Below, piece after piece: positions 3,628 to 41,574 of a DNA stretch of 64,000 nt. A program made the position numbers and the translations under genes. Position 1 is the first letter of the stretch. Each line of letters opens with the position of its first letter. The stretch comes from Flocculibacter collagenilyticus. GTDB taxonomy: Bacteria > Pseudomonadota > Gammaproteobacteria > Enterobacterales > Alteromonadaceae. The notes below the pieces were generated by a model. It was not told where the DNA came from, made no database searches, and saw only the letters and a list, made by a program, of their open reading frames with translations. The stretch spans positions 3,235,899-3,299,898 of the forward strand of contig NZ_CP059888.1 of the NCBI RefSeq assembly GCF_016469335.1, in the 5' to 3' direction.

Positions 3628-3688
3628 GTTGTAAGCATTAACTTATAAACAGTGCCTTCTAAATACGCCCTACTAAACACAGCCCAGT

Positions 3689-3712
3689 AGCGCCCGATTA
3701 CGGGCGTTTGTT
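3689..3712 (+). terminator. rho-independent terminator (yebG)
   Basis: cgcccg-atta-cgggcg hairpin followed by tttgtt. Confidence 0.5.
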
Positions 3713-5054
3713 ATGATTCAGGCTCAACTTTATGCTTATTTTTTTCTTCAATCCATTGAGACATGTATTGAGTACTTTTCAATGAGTGGTGGCGAAGCAT
3801 AGCACCTGTAAAATTATTTAATCTATGCTGACCAAGGTGTTGTAACACATTATTGATTCTGTCAATAAGCGCCTTACCGATCACTTCAGCATCATAAATT
3901 TGATTAATTATCTGAAAACCATTTTGCTGCGCCTGTTGCCAAGCAGTTGAGTCTGAATACAGCGCAACCGCCTGCTCTACAAATGAATCAACATCATCTT
4001 CAATATAACCAGACCATGGTAAAGTGTTCTTAGCTTCATCTGTAAGAGTTGCTTCGCCCCCATCAACACTAACACGTGATTCAGAGGAATATTCAAGCCT
4101 TGGTATACAACTCATTGCCTCAACGCCAATAGTTGATGTGACATTAGGCGTACCAGCCTGCATCGCATCAATTAACTTACCTTTAAGGCCTGCCCCAAAA
4201 CGCAGTGGTGCTAAACACACCCTTGCTTGTTGCATTTCATGTTGTGCATCTTCAACCCACCCTTTCACATAAAACCCAATTTTCGGATTATGTAACTGCG
4301 TTGCTTTTTTAGGAGGGTATGAACCGCAAACCCGAATACTTGCTTGCGGTAAACGCTTTCTAATTTTTGGCCAAATTTCTTTATAAAGCCACAATACGGC
4401 ATCCCAATTCGGCTCATGACGAAAACTGCCAATTGAAATGAAATCCGTACGTTGCTCAAACGTCGGCAGCGTGTCAATTTCATTTGATGAAATATTTTCA
4501 ACCATGAATGGCGCATGCTGTAACAATGCAGGATCAATGTTAAATTGCTCTTGTAACAACTTCATTTCAGCACTCGAAATAATGAAAGTAAGATCACAAC
4601 GCAAAATTGCTGCAATCTCTCTTTTCGCATAATCTGAATGCCAATCTTCTTGTTGAATATCTCGATGCTGTTTTAATGCTTTGTGTCGAGCTTGGCGTAA
4701 GAAGTGTAAATCTTCGCTTTGTAAGATCCTAAGTGCCGAAGGACAGTTTTTCTCAACCCGCCATGCAAACTGCTCTTCCATCATGTAGCGGTCAAACACC
4801 ACAATATCTGGTGCTAATTCAGAAATATATTGATCAAAGCTACTGTCGTTCAGTGCAATACTTTGCGTTGGCACATTCAACATAGCCAAGTCTGCCATGT
4901 GCATACTTAACTCAGCAGGGCTGGCGAAGGTTACTTGCCAATCTTGTTGACGAAATAACTTTATCAAAGAAAGCATATTACTGCCCGCAGCTGATGACTT
5001 CGGCTCTGGCCACACATAGCCAATTATCAATACGTTCATGGTCATATTATTCAC
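3711..5054 (-). CDS. glycosyltransferase (GT4/RfaG-like)
   Basis: 447 aa; C-terminal GT-B fold signature region GWVEDAQHEM...RFGAGLKGKLIDAMQAGTPNV. Confidence 0.55.
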   Translation of the reverse strand: MNNMTMNVLIIGYVWPEPKSSAAGSNMLSLIKLFRQQDWQVTFASPAELSMHMADLAMLNVPTQSIALNDSSFDQYISELAPDIVVFDRYMMEEQFAWRVEKNCPSALRILQSEDLHFLRQARHKALKQHRDIQQEDWHSDYAKREIAAILRCDLTFIISSAEMKLLQEQFNIDPALLQHAPFMVENISSNEIDTLPTFEQRTDFISIGSFRHEPNWDAVLWLYKEIWPKIRKRLPQASIRVCGSYPPKKATQLHNPKIGFYVKGWVEDAQHEMQQARVCLAPLRFGAGLKGKLIDAMQAGTPNVTSTIGVEAMSCIPRLEYSSESRVSVDGGEATLTDEAKNTLPWSGYIEDDVDSFVEQAVALYSDSTAWQQAQQNGFQIINQIYDAEVIGKALIDRINNVLQHLGQHRLNNFTGAMLRHHSLKSTQYMSQWIEEKNKHKVEPES

Positions 5055-21817: not shown

Positions 21818-22108
21818 ATGGCTAAGAAAGTAACTGCTTCAAAAATGCCTAGCTCCGCACATATAGAGAGTGCAGAAGTTTTAGGCCAACTTATCAAGGC
21901 AAAGAGAACGGAACTCGGCATAAAATTAGCAGATTGTGCCGCGCTATGCGGGATCGGCATCAATACTTTGTCACGTATAGAAAACGGAAATTCAAACTGC
22001 ACTTTATCAGCGGTATTTTCTGTTTTAAACGGATTAGGTATTAAGCTAACCTCTAAAGAATTAACCCCTTTAGAAAAGGTATCATCACCTCACGATGAGT
22101 GGGTTTAG
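21818..22108 (+). CDS. hipB: HipB-like XRE-family HTH antitoxin
   Basis: HTH (LIKAKRTELGIKLADCAALCGIGINTLSRIENG); aaggtg RBS before ATG 21818; overlaps hipA start. Confidence 0.75.
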   Translation: MAKKVTASKMPSSAHIESAEVLGQLIKAKRTELGIKLADCAALCGIGINTLSRIENGNSNCTLSAVFSVLNGLGIKLTSKELTPLEKVSSPHDEWV

Positions 22109-23439
22109 ATATGATAAAAGCTGACGCATACAGGCTAGACATAAAATACGCTGATCAAGTGATCGGAAATTTATCTTTAGATAGTACGACCAACTTATTA
22201 AAACTTAGTTATTCACCGCAGTGGCAAAACGAAGGTTTTGCTATCTCACCCCATTTATCACTGGATAATCAACACTCGCCAGAAGTCGCATATAACTTTC
22301 TGGATAATGCCTTACCTGAGGGTGAAGCGAGAAAGTTATTAGCTGAAAATCTGGGAGTCTCGGAGAAAAATGTTTATTCACAAGTCCGTGCCATTGGAAA
22401 TGACTTAGCCGGGGCTATGACATTTTTACCGTCATCAGAAGAAGATCAAAACCAGCCATCTTTTAGAATACTTGAAGAAGAAGAGTTAATTACAAGGCTC
22501 GACAATAAAGAACAGTTTGGCCTACTCACATGGGACGATAAGCCACGTCTCAGCGTGGCCGGAGTTCAAGATAAATTAAATGTCTTTATTAATGAACAAG
22601 GAAATATCGGCTTTGGTGATGGCTCTCTCTGCTCTACCCATATTTTAAAATTTGAAAAGAAAAACTGCCCTAACCTCGTCTTGAACGAATTCTTTTGTAT
22701 GAAGCTCTCTAGTGCGATTGGATTGCCAACTGCTGATGTTGAGTATAGACAATTTGGACCACATCCATCGCTCATCGTAAAACGATTTGATCGCAAATAT
22801 GTTGCCGACTCCAACAAAGTAATGAGACGCCATGTTATCGATGGCTGCCAAGCGTTGAATTTACCAAGGGACTATAAATACGAGAGAAACTTAGGTGACG
22901 GAAGAGATGTTCAACATATTAGAGATGGAGCTAGCTTAGTAAAGCTATTTGAATTCACTGAACATATGTCTTCGCCAATTGAAAGTAAGCAATGGCTTAT
23001 AAACTGGCAACTCTTTAATTTAATGATCAGCAATTATGACAGCCACGGCAAAAACGTTTCACTATTCTTTGATAGAATTAACGCACGATTCACTCCCGCC
23101 TATGATTTAGTAAACATCGCCATGTTCCCTCAATTTAAGCATGTACTAGCGATGGCTATGGGAGATGAGTTTGAACCCAATGATATTCACGCTTATCAAC
23201 TAGCTGATTTCGCAGAAACCTGTGGCATAGATAAAAAACTATTATCTAGGTTGTTAACTGACATGGCAAATATAGTGATAAAACAACTTTCAACAGGAGC
23301 CTTGATTGAAAGTTTGAAAACTCAATCTCGCTTTTCTGATGCCGATGTTGGTCATTTTAAGCAACTGAATGACAACATATTAACAAGAACTGAGCACTTA
23401 AAAGCTCAAGCAGTTGAATTACCTTATATAGAAATATAG
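22099..23439 (+). CDS. hipA: HipA-family Ser/Thr kinase toxin
   Basis: 446 aa; RLSVAGVQDK (compare E. coli RISVAGAQEK) and catalytic NYDSHGKNVSLFF (compare DGHAKNFS). Confidence 0.85.
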   Translation: MGLDMIKADAYRLDIKYADQVIGNLSLDSTTNLLKLSYSPQWQNEGFAISPHLSLDNQHSPEVAYNFLDNALPEGEARKLLAENLGVSEKNVYSQVRAIGNDLAGAMTFLPSSEEDQNQPSFRILEEEELITRLDNKEQFGLLTWDDKPRLSVAGVQDKLNVFINEQGNIGFGDGSLCSTHILKFEKKNCPNLVLNEFFCMKLSSAIGLPTADVEYRQFGPHPSLIVKRFDRKYVADSNKVMRRHVIDGCQALNLPRDYKYERNLGDGRDVQHIRDGASLVKLFEFTEHMSSPIESKQWLINWQLFNLMISNYDSHGKNVSLFFDRINARFTPAYDLVNIAMFPQFKHVLAMAMGDEFEPNDIHAYQLADFAETCGIDKKLLSRLLTDMANIVIKQLSTGALIESLKTQSRFSDADVGHFKQLNDNILTRTEHLKAQAVELPYIEI

Positions 23440-29179: not shown

Positions 29180-30784
29180 TTAGGAAGATAAATCACGCCA
29201 TTTAAGCCCAAATTTACCTAAGTATTTCTGTAGTCTGCTTGAGTCATTAGGTTGCGACTTCATCGTTCTACTCACATTGAATAGCTCCCTGCCCGCCGAT
29301 GCCATACTGTTATGGTGTTCACATACCCCGAGTACAAAACTAAGCTGGTTCGCGTCAAAGTGATCTAACTGAGCAATCGCTTCTGGCGATAGGTAGTTAG
29401 CTAAGCTCGTTGCTGTTGATGGCTGCTCTGTGTCAAACCAAGCTACATTCAGCCGCTCAATTTCATCTGTTACATCAACCGCTGTAATTCTAGAAGAGTC
29501 AGCCAGGGTGCAAAGGCGCGTAATGGCTGAACTTAAATCACGAAAATTACTGGTCCATAACGCCTTATTAGACGTTGCAAAATCTACAAAGGCTAGCTTT
29601 GCTTCTTTGTTAAATTGCACTCGCTGCCCTGTGATTTGGGCATAACGATCCAGCTCATAATCAATGTTGGCAGGAATATCTTCTTTTCTGTCTTTTAGTG
29701 CTGGTAAGTCATACGCCCATAAATTTATTCTGGCGAGTAAGTCTTCCCGAAAGGCGCCCTTCTTAACTTCTTGTTTTAAATTACGATTCGTACCTGCAAT
29801 TAACTGAAAATTGCTCTTTACTGGTGTATCACTGCCAACGGGATGAAATGTTTTATTTTCAATAGCATGCAGAAGCATCGCTTGCTCTTCCAAACCTAGC
29901 TCACCAATTTCATCTAGAAATAACACGCCATTATTCGCGGTGAGTAAAAAGCCTTCTCGCGCACTTTGAGCGCCAGTAAAGGCACCTTTAGTGTGACCAA
30001 ATAATGCCGCCATCGCATTTTCGCCCTTTAACGTGGCGCAGTTTACCGACACCAAATCGCCTTTAAGCATTGCACGCTTTTTCTTAAGTTGAAAAATACG
30101 CGTAGCAAGTTGGCTTTTTCCAGCTCCTGTAGGCCCTGTTAGTAACATAGGATCATGAGAGCGAATAGCCACTTTTTCTATTTGAGTAATTAAACGATTA
30201 AACGCTACATTCTTGGTTTTAATCCCACCTTTTAAAAACGCTTTGCCTTCAAGATGCTCCCGATCAAACCGGGTGGCGAGCTGATCATATTTAGACAAAT
30301 CCAAATCAATAATTTGAATACGGCCAATTGACTTATTTTTACTATCTTTGTCGGGCGACGTTTGAATGAGTCGCCCCGGAAAATGGCGGCTTTCAGTGAG
30401 TAGATAACTACATATTTGAACAACATGAGTACCTGTGGTGATATGAAACAAATAATCATATTTATCTGTATCAAACGTTTGCTGCTGACACCAATCAAAT
30501 AGCTTGGCGTATACTTCCTCAAAATCCCATGGATCATTAAAGTTAACCAAATGAAGTACTACGTTAGTTTCAGGAGATACCGATTCAATATCTACGGCAA
30601 CATTGTTCGCAAGGCGGTTGCTGTGATTGTCATGCAGCATGTGAAGTTGATCGATAATTAAATCTTCCTGACTACATAAACTGACATTGGGCCGCCACCT
30701 CGCCCATCTATCCACTCTTTTCCCAACATAATCTAATTGTGTTCCAATTAAACTGACAGCAACCGTTTTCTTTTTCAAATTCAA
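29180..30784 (-). CDS. rtcR: sigma54-dependent transcriptional activator RtcR (CARF-like N-domain + AAA+ + HTH)
   Basis: 534 aa; collinear with E. coli RtcR (VAFGFVGT..LDY, PWDFEEVYA, LLTGPTGAGKS, GAFTGA sigma54-contact motif). Confidence 0.9.
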   Translation of the reverse strand: MNLKKKTVAVSLIGTQLDYVGKRVDRWARWRPNVSLCSQEDLIIDQLHMLHDNHSNRLANNVAVDIESVSPETNVVLHLVNFNDPWDFEEVYAKLFDWCQQQTFDTDKYDYLFHITTGTHVVQICSYLLTESRHFPGRLIQTSPDKDSKNKSIGRIQIIDLDLSKYDQLATRFDREHLEGKAFLKGGIKTKNVAFNRLITQIEKVAIRSHDPMLLTGPTGAGKSQLATRIFQLKKKRAMLKGDLVSVNCATLKGENAMAALFGHTKGAFTGAQSAREGFLLTANNGVLFLDEIGELGLEEQAMLLHAIENKTFHPVGSDTPVKSNFQLIAGTNRNLKQEVKKGAFREDLLARINLWAYDLPALKDRKEDIPANIDYELDRYAQITGQRVQFNKEAKLAFVDFATSNKALWTSNFRDLSSAITRLCTLADSSRITAVDVTDEIERLNVAWFDTEQPSTATSLANYLSPEAIAQLDHFDANQLSFVLGVCEHHNSMASAGRELFNVSRTMKSQPNDSSRLQKYLGKFGLKWRDLSS

Positions 30785-30929
30785 TATCCAAATAGATACA
30801 TTTAATATCCAAAATAATATATACGTTAGTTACACATTACAACACGGCCTGCACTAAAAACAGCACAAATAAAAATATAAATCAATAAAACAATTAGTTA
30901 TGAATTATTTTTAACTACTTAAACACCTT

Positions 30930-30945
30930 TGGCACGTGACTTGTA
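30930..30945 (+). promoter_or_regulatory. candidate sigma54 (-24/-12) promoter: TGGCAC-N5-TTGT
   Basis: tttGGcacgtgacTTGTa; -24 GG is perfect, -12 is TTGT instead of TTGC. Divergent from rtcR, about 90 bp upstream of the tRNA-like element. Confidence 0.4.
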
Positions 30946-31034
30946 ATTACATAGGTACTTGATTATTTAGCTGTGATTAAAATATCACGCTGGTGCACTA
31001 AGCAATGCGAATGTGTATGCCTAATCAAGTAACC

Positions 31035-31106
31035 ATTTAAGTAGCTCAATTGGCAGAGCATCGAACTTTCATTCGATTGTTGTGGGTTCAAGTCCCACCT
31101 TAATAA
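31035..31106 (+). ncRNA. tRNA-like element (tRNA mimic or pseudo-tRNA) in the rtc operon leader
   Basis: Hand fold: canonical D-arm (U8 A9 GCUC AAUUGGCA GAGC), canonical T-arm (GUGGG UUCAAGU CCCAC); 5-bp anticodon-like stem with a 6-nt loop (cuuuca); acceptor-like stem 5/7 paired; no CCA. Confidence 0.5.
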
Positions 31107-31415
31107 ATGAACAATATATGCCCAACACTAGTGAAAGTCCGCTAAGCGACAAGCAACTGACTTCCATGCACTTAGATAAACTAAGTAGCTGGGGGAAGCG
31201 CGCAGTCAACAACGCGGCACCTTGATTTAGTGAAATAGGCATGCTGTTGGTAAGCAGTAAGTACCAATGCTTAATATACGCGAAAGCAAGCTTTGTAGTG
31301 GCAAGCAGGACGCTCCCCACTGCAATACACCTTTCCGCCTTTTTTAAGTATGTGCCTGCTCCTTACTAACCTACTCTCCCAAAAAAATATTTGCGGAGTA
31401 AAAAGGAAATTAAAG

Positions 31416-39784: not shown

Positions 39785-40411
39785 CTAGTCAACTAGAGCG
39801 AATTTTTCGTCTTTAAATGTTTTTACTGGGTTGCCGCGCTCCAACTCCCAATGTTGTTGCCAGCGTGCTTTTTCTTGCAACGACAATTGTGCATGCTTGG
39901 TCGCTTCTAGTTTTTGAAATAATAATGCCCTAGCTAAACGCTTATTAGCATGCTGACTTCTTTCACTTTCAACTCTTACTGCCACTCCCGTCTCGGTGTG
40001 TACAGCCCTAACCGCAGAGTCCGTTTTATTAACGTGTTGTCCGCCAGCTCCCGACGCCCTACACGTTTGAAAAGTAATGCTTCGATCAAACTGAATATCA
40101 TTTATTTCGTACATGTGTCCGCTAAAAAACCAGTTTTTACGCTTATGCTTTGATCTAAACTGACTTTGGCATACCCATAACATGGTTCCCTGCCAAGATG
40201 CAGCTAACCGCTTGGCATCTGGTGTTTTGCCAGAATCAAGCTGCATTAATACAGATTTAAAACAAGCCGGCGTGCTCATTTCAATGGCTTCAATAGTTTC
40301 TAGTTTTATACCTTGTGCTTTACATTGTTTTTCAATTGCTTTTAGCGCTAACCCTACTGCGTTTCCACATTCAACAGGCCCTTGGCCTGCGGATAATTGA
40401 AGTAATATCAT
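39785..40411 (-). CDS. prfH: peptide chain release factor H
   Basis: [16 protein letters not shown] (compare E. coli PrfH MILLQLSSAQGPEEC) and [19 protein letters not shown] motif. ATG 40411 overlaps the rtcB2 TGA (ATGA coupling); the track start at 40420 is TTG. Confidence 0.9.
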
Positions 40412-41574
40412 GATGAACAATTTCCATTTGTTTTAAAGGTTAAAACCGGGCGCAATTTTGCCACCACGTCAATAAGACCAGCATCAACCATATCGCTAAT
40501 CACTGTTTCACATTTTTTATAGGCTTGTGGTGCTTCATCGTATAAAAGCGCTTTATTACCACATACCACCCGGCTACCCAACGCCGTTCGATATAAGTCT
40601 TCACGCTTGTACTTATGACCTAACCGACTATGGCACTCACCACGCTTCCATTTCCTTCCTGCACCGTGTGCTAAAGAAAATAAACTTGTCGACATGTTTT
40701 CATGCTTATTGATCAATGGCTTTACCAAATAGCTATAGTCACCGCGCGAACCAGGAATCACTACATAGCCGTTGTCACTTGGTGTTGCACCTTTTCTATG
40801 TAACCAGCCGGCTTGTTCATCAATTACTTTAGGTGAAACCAAATTGTGATTTACATCTAGAGTGCAGTAACCATTAGTTCTTATCGCTTCTAAAAAACGT
40901 TTGGCAATTAATTCGCGATTAAGCTCTGCCCAACGAACAGCTTCATTATGCTTATTCATGTAATCAAGAAAGTCTTCGTCCATCTCGGTTAAACCGTCAT
41001 GATTATGCGCCGTAATATGATTAACCAAAATTGATTGCCCCAAGCCTCTAGAGCCAGAGTGTACTAGCAACTGTAAATGTTTTTCATTTAAGCCGAGCTC
41101 CGTTAGAGCGGTTTGATCATAAACATGTTCAATGGCCTGAAACTCGGCAAAATGATTCCCTCCACCAATAGTGCCTAAAGCATGATCAAAGGCATTGATG
41201 GTTATGCCTTTCTCAGCTTTGCGCGTATTAATAATCGGTGACCAGCTTTCATCTAAAGGGTGTTCTATATGCTCAAACTTTTTAGCTAATTTATCTATAT
41301 TTACCTTGGACACAGCCTTTGAGGTTTGCCATAACGCCATACCACAGCCAATATCATTACCTACCAAAGCAGGATAGATCTTATTCGTTGTGAAAAATGC
41401 CGCTCCAATTGGATAGCCTCTTCCTGGATGCAGATCTGGCATGCCGGCAACACGGTGCATACCAGTTAATGTTGATGTTTTTATCAATTGTTGAATTGCT
41501 AGCCCTTCAATCCACGTATTTGCAGATGCAATTAGGCTAACGTTTTCAGTAATTTTTTGGACGGATTTGCCCAT
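40408..41574 (-). CDS. rtcB2: RtcB-family RNA ligase, PrfH-associated paralog (RtcB2)
   Basis: 388 aa; RtcB motifs ([32 protein letters not shown]); translationally coupled to prfH. Confidence 0.9.

Follow-up and report, generated by a model that had tools for sequence, protein, structure and literature searches.

A tRNA-shaped, non-decoding RNA, probably tied to the slipin gene, in the RtcB RNA-repair neighbourhood of Flocculibacter collagenilyticus

Bacterial RtcB repair operons are widespread, and their accessory parts are poorly understood. The 'band 7-associated tRNA', or b7a-tRNA, was predicted by Burroughs and Aravind (2016, Nucleic Acids Res), who are cited here through Wang et al. 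(2018, bioRxiv 10.1101/312249). According to the passages of the latter paper that deal with it, the b7a-tRNA is a predicted non-coding RNA that is strongly tRNA-like, is encoded beside a Band-7 protein and RtcB and is occasionally exchanged with YrlA/Rsr (bioRxiv 10.1101/312249). No other paper using the term was found in a full-text literature search. The present work concerns a tRNA-like element upstream of a slipin gene at positions 31035-31106 of a 64-kb stretch of the Flocculibacter collagenilyticus contig NZ_CP059888.1; this whole stretch of 64,000 nucleotides (nt), referred to as the window, was the subject both of an earlier note, made from the letters alone, and of this analysis, the rest of the genome being outside the view of both. 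The window element has all three traits of the b7a-tRNA, namely a Band-7 neighbour, an RtcB neighbourhood and strong tRNA likeness, and it very probably belongs to that class. Going by the passages cited, the class had been predicted by 2016, so the element is not of a new kind. Possibly new are its placement between two conserved RNA domains (D1 and D4, the element itself being D2), the free anticodon loop, the linkage to slipin and not to RtcR, and the YrlA-like junctions between tandem copies; in the same passages of Wang et al., the description of the b7a-tRNA mentions neither tandem copies nor a free anticodon loop, D1 or D4.

A second system is the rsr-yrlBA-rtcBA operon of Salmonella, in which YrlA, together with Rsr/Ro60, was proposed to act as a tether for tRNA-type substrates or to present them to the repair enzymes. 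YrlA (RF02553) and the window element are both tRNA mimics with D and T arms, found in an operon of RtcR/sigma54 type with RtcB and RtcA, and it has been proposed that YrlA/Rsr and the b7a-tRNA are functionally interchangeable. The earlier note had placed the element in the same position as rsr and the Y RNAs of Salmonella; the same analogy is drawn in the relevant passages of Wang et al. (2018, bioRxiv 10.1101/312249), citing Burroughs and Aravind (2016), and the functional guesses of the note broadly match the published ones. The two systems differ, however, in that the window operon has no rsr/TROVE gene and its RNA element has no Ro-binding stem made from the 5' and 3' ends. Furthermore, the tRNA-like part of YrlA is permuted and has no anticodon arm, whereas the window element is a standard 5'-to-3' unpermuted cloverleaf with an anticodon arm of its own. 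In agreement with the claim that no Ro60 gene is encoded, no TROVE (Ro60) domain was found by Pfam in the operon or in the other large window open reading frames (ORFs) scanned. The YrlA covariance model (RF02553), which had been put forward as a check on this region, did not match 30780-31420 at E<=10.

The slipin gene alr0740 of Anabaena belongs to the TrcR stress regulon together with a tRNA array and rtcB, and a sponge role has been suggested for the array tRNAs. Both systems associate tRNA genes with RtcB in translational stress, and the Anabaena arrangement is echoed by the arrays of 6-14 tRNAs of seven loci described below. The array tRNAs of Anabaena look functional (7-nt loops, CCA), whereas the window copy is single and non-canonical.

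The element is recorded as follows.

31035-31106, + strand: D2, tRNA-like element, very probably band 7-associated (ARAGORN, Rfam tRNA, family model R3)

In the whole 64 kb, ARAGORN called a single tRNA-like gene, 31035-31106 (+), reported as 'tRNA-???' with a 2-letter anticodon and therefore with a 6-nt loop. The single Rfam match in the 64 kb at gathering thresholds was the tRNA family RF00005 at 31035-31105 (51.1 bits, cut-off 29), aligned with one loop position absent and a non-standard pair topping the acceptor stem, and the family model R3 scored the element at 75.2 bits. It carries U8, A14, G18G19 and A21 and the T arm GUGGG-UUCAAGU-CCCAC. The two programs and the sequence itself thus agree with the earlier note on the position of the element and its listed features. 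The acceptor stem, AUUUAAG/CUUAAUA, consists of 5 pairs and 2 terminal mismatches (U.U, A.A), CCA is not encoded, and the anticodon-type loop, CUUUCA, is 6 nt long; both the loop of a decoding tRNA (7 nt, U33, purine 37) and the fully paired 7-bp acceptor stem with encoded CCA are missing. On these features the view that the element is not a functional tRNA but a non-decoding mimic was upheld. It ends 309 nt 5' of the slipin ATG, on the same strand. Its body is nearest to the slipin-proximal copy of relatives, and its loop is 1 nt shorter than that of L011 (CUUUUAC). Degenerate tRNA-like copies hidden in 31107-31349 were considered and rejected, R3 without filters giving at most 2.9 bits and Rfam nothing at E<=10.

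A search for slipin homologues in one-genome-per-species contigs gave 557 relatives, and 80 loci were kept. These span Alteromonadales, Vibrionales, other Gammaproteobacteria and Betaproteobacteria, as well as metagenome-assembled genomes of Myxococcota, Binatia and Eisenbacteria. ARAGORN found 1-3 tRNA-like genes on the slipin strand, no more than 700 nt upstream, in 56 of the 80 loci, and most of those that it missed were recovered with the Rfam tRNA model. With the family model R3, at least one same-strand copy was found within about 1 kb upstream of slipin in 76/80 loci; the four others include L062 and L066, where the sequence upstream is shorter than 300 nt.

When 65 copies were aligned with MAFFT, the D and T arms proved nearly invariant, and the acceptor, anticodon and T stems showed compensatory changes in 17 of 20 pairs, which is the covariation that the earlier note had proposed to look for by comparative alignment. 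All five pairs of the anticodon stem are maintained by covariation. The anticodon-type loop has 7 nt in 43/65 copies, the shortest lengths counted being in part artefacts of the alignment. U33 is present in 27 of the 43, and CCA is encoded in 12/65 copies. At equivalent positions in close relatives, the copies read Ser, Arg, Stop, SeC (selenocysteine), Lys or 2- or 4-letter 'anticodons'; the loops of orthologous copies are unrelated and show none of the anticodon conservation of a decoding tRNA, and tandem copies of one locus differ in loop as well. Neighbouring copies abut or overlap by 2-4 nt, and a conserved 'AC' often stands 3' of the acceptor stem. Since the covarying fold is kept while the loop is free between orthologues, both a pseudogene and an ordinary decoding tRNA are excluded. 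A decayed tRNA remnant, the outcome against which the earlier note had guarded, is ruled out by the strong conservation and the compensatory changes over the 65 copies. The element is under structural selection as a tRNA shape, and its anticodon loop is free to vary.

Two variants were observed in the survey. Same-strand arrays of 6-14 ordinary-looking tRNA genes, many with CCA, are present in L034, L050, L051, L070, L071, L074 and L080, directly upstream of the unit of D1, tRNA-like element and slipin; in some of them (L071, L051) rtcB is found on the far side of the array. In L034, L036, L037, L038, L040, L043, L044 and L068 the full element is directly followed by a second, truncated tRNA-like unit, which is made up of GGUAAAG, a short tetraloop hairpin and a T arm (GGGGUUCGAnUCCCC) and has neither acceptor stem nor anticodon arm.

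The earlier note had taken the element for a feature of the rtcR-regulated rtcBA leader, and the survey spoke against this. Synteny mapping gave the order rtcR-rtcB-(rtcA)-RNA-slipin in L037, L038, L042, L043, L045 and L046, the RNA lies directly upstream of slipin also where the fetched locus has no rtcR, and in the many loci without rtcR or a sigma54 promoter it still adjoins the slipin gene. Hence, because the RNA keeps its place beside slipin across gene orders, it was concluded that it is a partner of slipin and not a property of the rtcBA leader. The data show the conserved fold, its linkage to the slipin gene and the lack of constraint on the anticodon loop; D2 is regarded as probably a non-decoding RNA in the shape of a tRNA, its gene bound to that of a cytosolic slipin in the neighbourhood of RtcB RNA-repair genes.

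The element is embedded in a leader of about 460 nt, for which full-length minimum free energy (MFE) folding gave four independent domains in the order D1, tRNA mimic, D3 and D4. Conservation in relatives covers the stretch from promoter to mimic and the ~170 nt next to the slipin ATG, and is absent from 31107-31245.

30956-31031, + strand: D1, conserved 5' three-way-junction RNA domain (RNAalifold on a MAFFT alignment of 12 sequences)
31112-31249, + strand: D3, lineage-specific hairpin of ~138 nt (MFE -43 kcal/mol, z = -2.8)
31246-31370, + strand: D4, conserved long irregular hairpin (MFE -47.4 kcal/mol, z = -6.1)

D1, which lies between the promoter and the tRNA-like element (30956-31031), was overlooked in the earlier note. 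It is made up of a closing stem, a GUGAU/AUCAC hairpin and a GGUGCRC/GYGUAUNCC hairpin with conserved G.U pairs. The covariance model built for it (R2) picked up 46 matches at E<=1, of which 41 reached E<=0.001; every one lies on the + strand, upstream of a tRNA-like element. In the model-fitted alignment, 93% of the cells were paired against 29-48% in slid controls; 21 of the 25 pairs showed changes on both sides, and two G.U pairs were almost invariant. The distance from D1 to the first tRNA-like element is 0-20 nt in 29 of 45 loci and at most 80 nt in 44 of 45. D1 is present also in loci without the sigma54 motif, one of which, L068, has a TTGACA-N17-TATAAT promoter. The possibility that D1 is a DNA-binding palindrome of the CRP-like type (TGTGA...TCACA) was rejected; it is read as an RNA hairpin because the spacing of 7-9 nt varies and the other helices covary with conserved G.U pairs. 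A by-eye check of the D1 hairpin loop against the anticodon-type loops gave isolated complementarity (L018) and no consistent pattern.

D4 has the basal helix GUUGGUAAG/CUUACUAAC and a nearly invariant apical motif GGCAAGCAGGACGCUCCCC, also given as GGCAAGCnGGAUGCUCCCC. In a MAFFT alignment of 12 sequences, made with no structure fitting, 90.8% of the cells were paired (slid controls 31-42%) and 27 of 40 pairs were compensatory; among 31 + strand matches, 90% were paired against 33-39% in the controls, and 35/40 pairs were compensatory. Minus-strand scores of the D4 model were far below those of the + strand. At E<=10, Rfam 15 offered no family for D1 or D4, whether in the window, in L001 or in L057, and a by-eye check found no consistent D1-D4 complementarity by which the tRNA-like part would be enclosed as in a Y RNA. 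At the position of D4, five loci of betaproteobacterial type (L071, L072, L074, L080, L070) have a hairpin of ~220 nt by RNAalifold, in which covariation among the 5 sequences was unconvincing; the motif GCAGUACCCGGGCCGG is found in the same loci between the last tRNA-like element and slipin.

D3 occupies the position held in relatives by tRNA-like copies 2 and 3. It contains no tRNA-like remnant (best R3 score 2.4 bits), and its interpretation as a repeat, a mobile element or a diverged tandem unit was abandoned, since it has no similarity to the window or the 80 loci and its alignment scores equal those of shuffles. The earlier note was right that the 240 nt downstream of the element are structured, but the structure consists of the D3 (31112-31249) and D4 (31246-31370) hairpins and not of the local hairpins that had been proposed. 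The suggested long-range pairing 31188-31203/31309-31324 competes with D4 helices that are 88-100% paired and covary; the ttggta/taccaa hairpin also competes with covarying D4 helices and is not kept in L001 or L012.

The surrounding genes and the promoter are given below.

29180-30784, - strand: rtcR, sigma54-dependent activator with RtcR/CARF-type N-terminal domain (Pfam RtcR 3.6e-80, Sigma54_activat 3.3e-47)
30930-30945, + strand: putative sigma54-type promoter TGGCACGTGACTTGT (-24 GG; TTGT replaces TTGC at -12)
31416-32585, + strand: slipin (Band_7/SPFH), 389 aa (Pfam Band_7 2.8e-28)
32752-33978, + strand: rtcB RNA ligase (Pfam RtcB 8.5e-127)
33988-35058, + strand: rtcA RNA 3'-phosphate cyclase (Pfam RTC 3.3e-75)
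35094-35906, + strand: rlaP nucleotidyltransferase (Pfam RlaP 3.3e-89)
35812-36966, + strand: 384-aa ORF ending the operon (no Pfam or NCBIfam match)

Pfam thus bears out the earlier naming of RtcR on the minus strand and of Band_7/slipin, RtcB and RtcA on the plus strand. The slipin start was placed at 31416 and not at the ORF start 31350, because of a conserved ATG with an AAGGAA ribosome-binding site and a start that aligns in relatives. rtcB begins 167 nt past the slipin stop and is followed by rtcA and rlaP; characterised members of the RlaP family add 1-2 nucleoside monophosphates to damaged RNA 3' ends (PMC12776372). The last ORF, formerly called 'HEAT-like', is kept in L006 at 67% identity, also after rlaP, and its true start is probably 3' of the RlaP stop, since as called it overlaps the end of rlaP by ~95 nt.

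The motif TGGCACGTGACTTG at 30930-30943, 92 nt 5' of the tRNA-like element, shows the TGGCAC-N5 spacing and the -24 element of a sigma54 promoter, with TTGT and not TTGC at -12. Taken by itself it is unremarkable, as two or more matches occurred in 15 of 100 shuffles of the window. TGGCAC-N5-TTG is, on the other hand, invariant across 12 aligned relatives, and it precedes the start of the D1 model by 21-29 nt in about 30 loci linked to rtcR; support for the putative sigma54-like promoter claimed earlier comes from its invariance and fixed distance in the rtcR-linked relatives and not from its significance in the window. From this fixed distance, the transcription start is likely to lie near 30956-30958, at the first base of the D1 closing stem. 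No terminator-like site was found in 30700-31500, between the RNA region and slipin, in line with the earlier proposal that the RNA is cotranscribed with slipin-rtcB-rtcA from the sigma54-type promoter divergent from rtcR; at the level of sequence, this cotranscription is supported, and the leader is predicted to run on into slipin-rtcB-rtcA-rlaP.

The slipin matches the 389-aa slipin of Flocculibacter collagenilyticus at 100% identity and has no predicted membrane segment. Its AlphaFold2 model (pLDDT 76) consists of three beta-repeat units, an SPFH domain and a long helix. The major vault protein MVP was the only PDB match that aligned beyond the SPFH-plus-helix half, whereas stomatin, HflK/C and prohibitin outscored MVP over the C-terminal half. 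The similarity to MVP is moderate (TM ~0.4); the model fits a cage-forming, vault-like reading, which is not thereby established. A phage origin was rejected, as relatives of the slipin were not found in INPHARED or IMG/VR.

On the analogy with YrlA and Rsr, the RNA may act as a cofactor or tether with slipin in tRNA repair. Its conserved L-shape, with the D/T elbow and the acceptor and anticodon stems, would be read as tRNA by tRNA-handling proteins, for which RtcB, RtcA, RlaP, RNase P or an attacking anticodon nuclease are candidates. D1, D4 or both would bind a slipin oligomer, and the RNA would thereby serve to tether tRNA-type substrates or offer them to the repair enzymes, as was proposed for YrlA with Rsr/Ro60. 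This particular mechanism is offered tentatively, as one that may well turn out otherwise. The defined boundaries give a clonable RNA that can be tested for processing, slipin binding and protection from anticodon nucleases.

Several points weigh against the assignment of the RNA to slipin and against such a role. In the passages of Wang et al. consulted, the b7a-tRNA is said to be without experimental validation (bioRxiv 10.1101/312249), and D1 or D4 may already have been described in Burroughs and Aravind (2016), whose definition of the class reaches this work at second hand. The window copy is atypical for the family in being single and in having two mismatches at the top of the acceptor stem, its MFE fold adopts an alternative 6-bp acceptor register, and it could be a weakened family member. 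Binding of the RNA by slipin gained no support from the computations made here. In P. aeruginosa, deletion of the rtc-embedded slipin (PaFlo8) gave no phenotype in the published assays, which covered growth, secreted virulence factors, motility, biofilm and oxidative stress. Finally, genes for slipin, an RlaP-like nucleotidyltransferase and a zeta-toxin-family kinase occur together in 1629 of 5426 complete E. coli genomes (~30%), and the following regions were inspected.

L081 4490-5018 and L082 3091-3619: regions upstream of the E. coli slipin gene, between yjbD and lysC

In this 530-nt intergenic region no tRNA-like element, D1 or Rfam family was detected. The E. coli module was accordingly dismissed as a counterpart of the RNA-slipin unit, the genes being present and the upstream RNA signals absent, and since it has no detectable tRNA-like element, slipin can exist without the RNA.

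A more far-reaching version of the slipin reading would assign the composite RNA of ~400 nt (D1, 1-3 mimics and D4) to a soluble, vault-like shell of slipin as its RNA subunit; the shell would capture broken tRNAs for RtcB, RtcA and RlaP, and YrlA would have arisen as a circular permutation of two adjacent mimics. This version is considered rather unlikely. The vault particle comprises an MVP cage, vault RNA and the TROVE protein TEP1, and vault RNAs do not have the shape of a tRNA. The three copies of L001 abut one another, and the YrlA model matched both of their junctions (3648-3709 and 3721-3777) with 33 and 32 bits, far below its cut-off of 69. The order in these matches is the T arm of copy n, a hairpin of two acceptor strands (3' from copy n, 5' from copy n+1), and the D arm of copy n+1. 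This suggests, as a lead only, that the permuted tRNA-like core of YrlA may derive from a tandem pair of mimics; such an origin is not demonstrated by the match, because D and T arms are generic tRNA features. The results hint at a relation between the Ro60/Y RNA and slipin systems. If both the vault-like shell and the YrlA permutation were true, the Ro60-Y RNA and slipin-b7a systems would be two versions of one ancient tRNA-repair ribonucleoprotein, with kinship to the eukaryotic vault and Ro particles.

Among the rival explanations, the one that survives best is that the mimics are decoys: made in bulk when the operon fires, they would soak up anticodon nucleases or tRNA-targeting toxins and so spare the working tRNAs; different toxins would be mirrored in the variable loops and in the number of copies (1-3 per locus). 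The loops are the only hypervariable part, they differ between tandem copies of one locus, and many resemble nuclease targets, e.g. CUUUUAA (Lys-UUU type) and CUCAUAA. Such a role would also accord with that of competitive nuclease inhibitor suggested for YrlA's tRNA-like domain, with the sponge role suggested for the Anabaena array and with the whole ordinary-looking tRNA arrays that several loci have in the same place. Yet many of the loops are 4-6 or 8-9 nt long or have no U33, which makes them poor mimics of an anticodon loop, and the strict linkage to slipin and the conservation of D1 and D4 are left unexplained. As the explanation of the element a decoy is thus held to be improbable, although it is compatible with a slipin-linked RNA.

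It has also to be considered that the tRNA shape is a processing signal for RNase P or 3' processing, by which D1 would be freed as a small RNA and the slipin mRNA given a defined, hairpin-protected 5' end, the tRNA-like piece itself being a by-product. A tRNA shape inside a longer transcript, between functional RNAs, is known from the mascRNA of MALAT1 and from mitochondrial tRNA punctuation. The short distance between D1 and the first tRNA-like element (0-20 nt in 29/45 loci) and the 'AC' that often follows the acceptor stem would suit such a signal, and YrlA of M. smegmatis is cleaved by RNase P and receives CCA. The conservation pattern matches the requirements of RNase P, which depends on the acceptor stem, the T arm and the elbow but can do without the anticodon loop. 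The anticodon stem, however, covaries in all five pairs although RNase P does not need it, and relatives keep 2-3 copies where a single signal would suffice; the maintained stem and the multiple copies exceed the needs of a cleavage signal, unlike the mascRNA and mitochondrial cases. Moreover, since adjacent copies abut or overlap by 2-4 nt, not all of them can be released intact. Processing punctuation is accordingly judged unlikely.

The earlier note had also considered the element as a source of RtcR ligand. In such a scheme, the mimic would on cleavage yield 5' fragments with cyclic phosphate that bind the CARF domain of RtcR and drive positive feedback. The CARF domain does bind tRNA 5' fragments ending in cyclic phosphate, RtcA being required, and the window RNA would be made from an RtcR-dependent promoter. 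As a main role, this was weakened by RNA-slipin units whose fetched locus has no rtcR and which have no sigma54 motif, namely L068 (with its TTGACA-N17-TATAAT promoter), L035, L039 and L041, and conditions that switch on the Salmonella operon did not lead to cleavage of YrlA; a ligand source is therefore regarded as very unlikely. The decoy, processing and ligand-source explanations are inseparable by computation alone. The last alternative, a working unusual tRNA (a frameshift or nonsense suppressor, or a nuclease-resistant spare) or a decaying tRNA pseudogene, can appeal to the passed Rfam tRNA threshold, to the canonical 7-nt loops and encoded CCA of some distant relatives and to the ordinary tRNA arrays at the same place in some loci, but it is effectively excluded by the 6-nt loop, acceptor mismatches and missing CCA of the window copy, by the unconserved loop sequence of orthologous copies and by the 17/20 pairs held by compensatory changes across phyla, which a pseudogene would not keep.

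Outside the operon, two further RNA-repair modules follow it on the minus strand (37040-41574), and the region is an RNA-repair island. Encoded there are an HD domain fused to a Pnkp-like kinase (37040-38302), an RNA_ligase PF09414 protein (38295-38954), a protein with a PrfH-like RF-1 domain (39785-40420) and another RtcB, the second in the window (40408-41574). On the other side, 7 kb upstream of rtcR, lies a gene for a toxin kinase of the HipA family (HipA_C and Couple_hipA; 22099-23439, + strand). Characterised HipA kinases target the translation apparatus.

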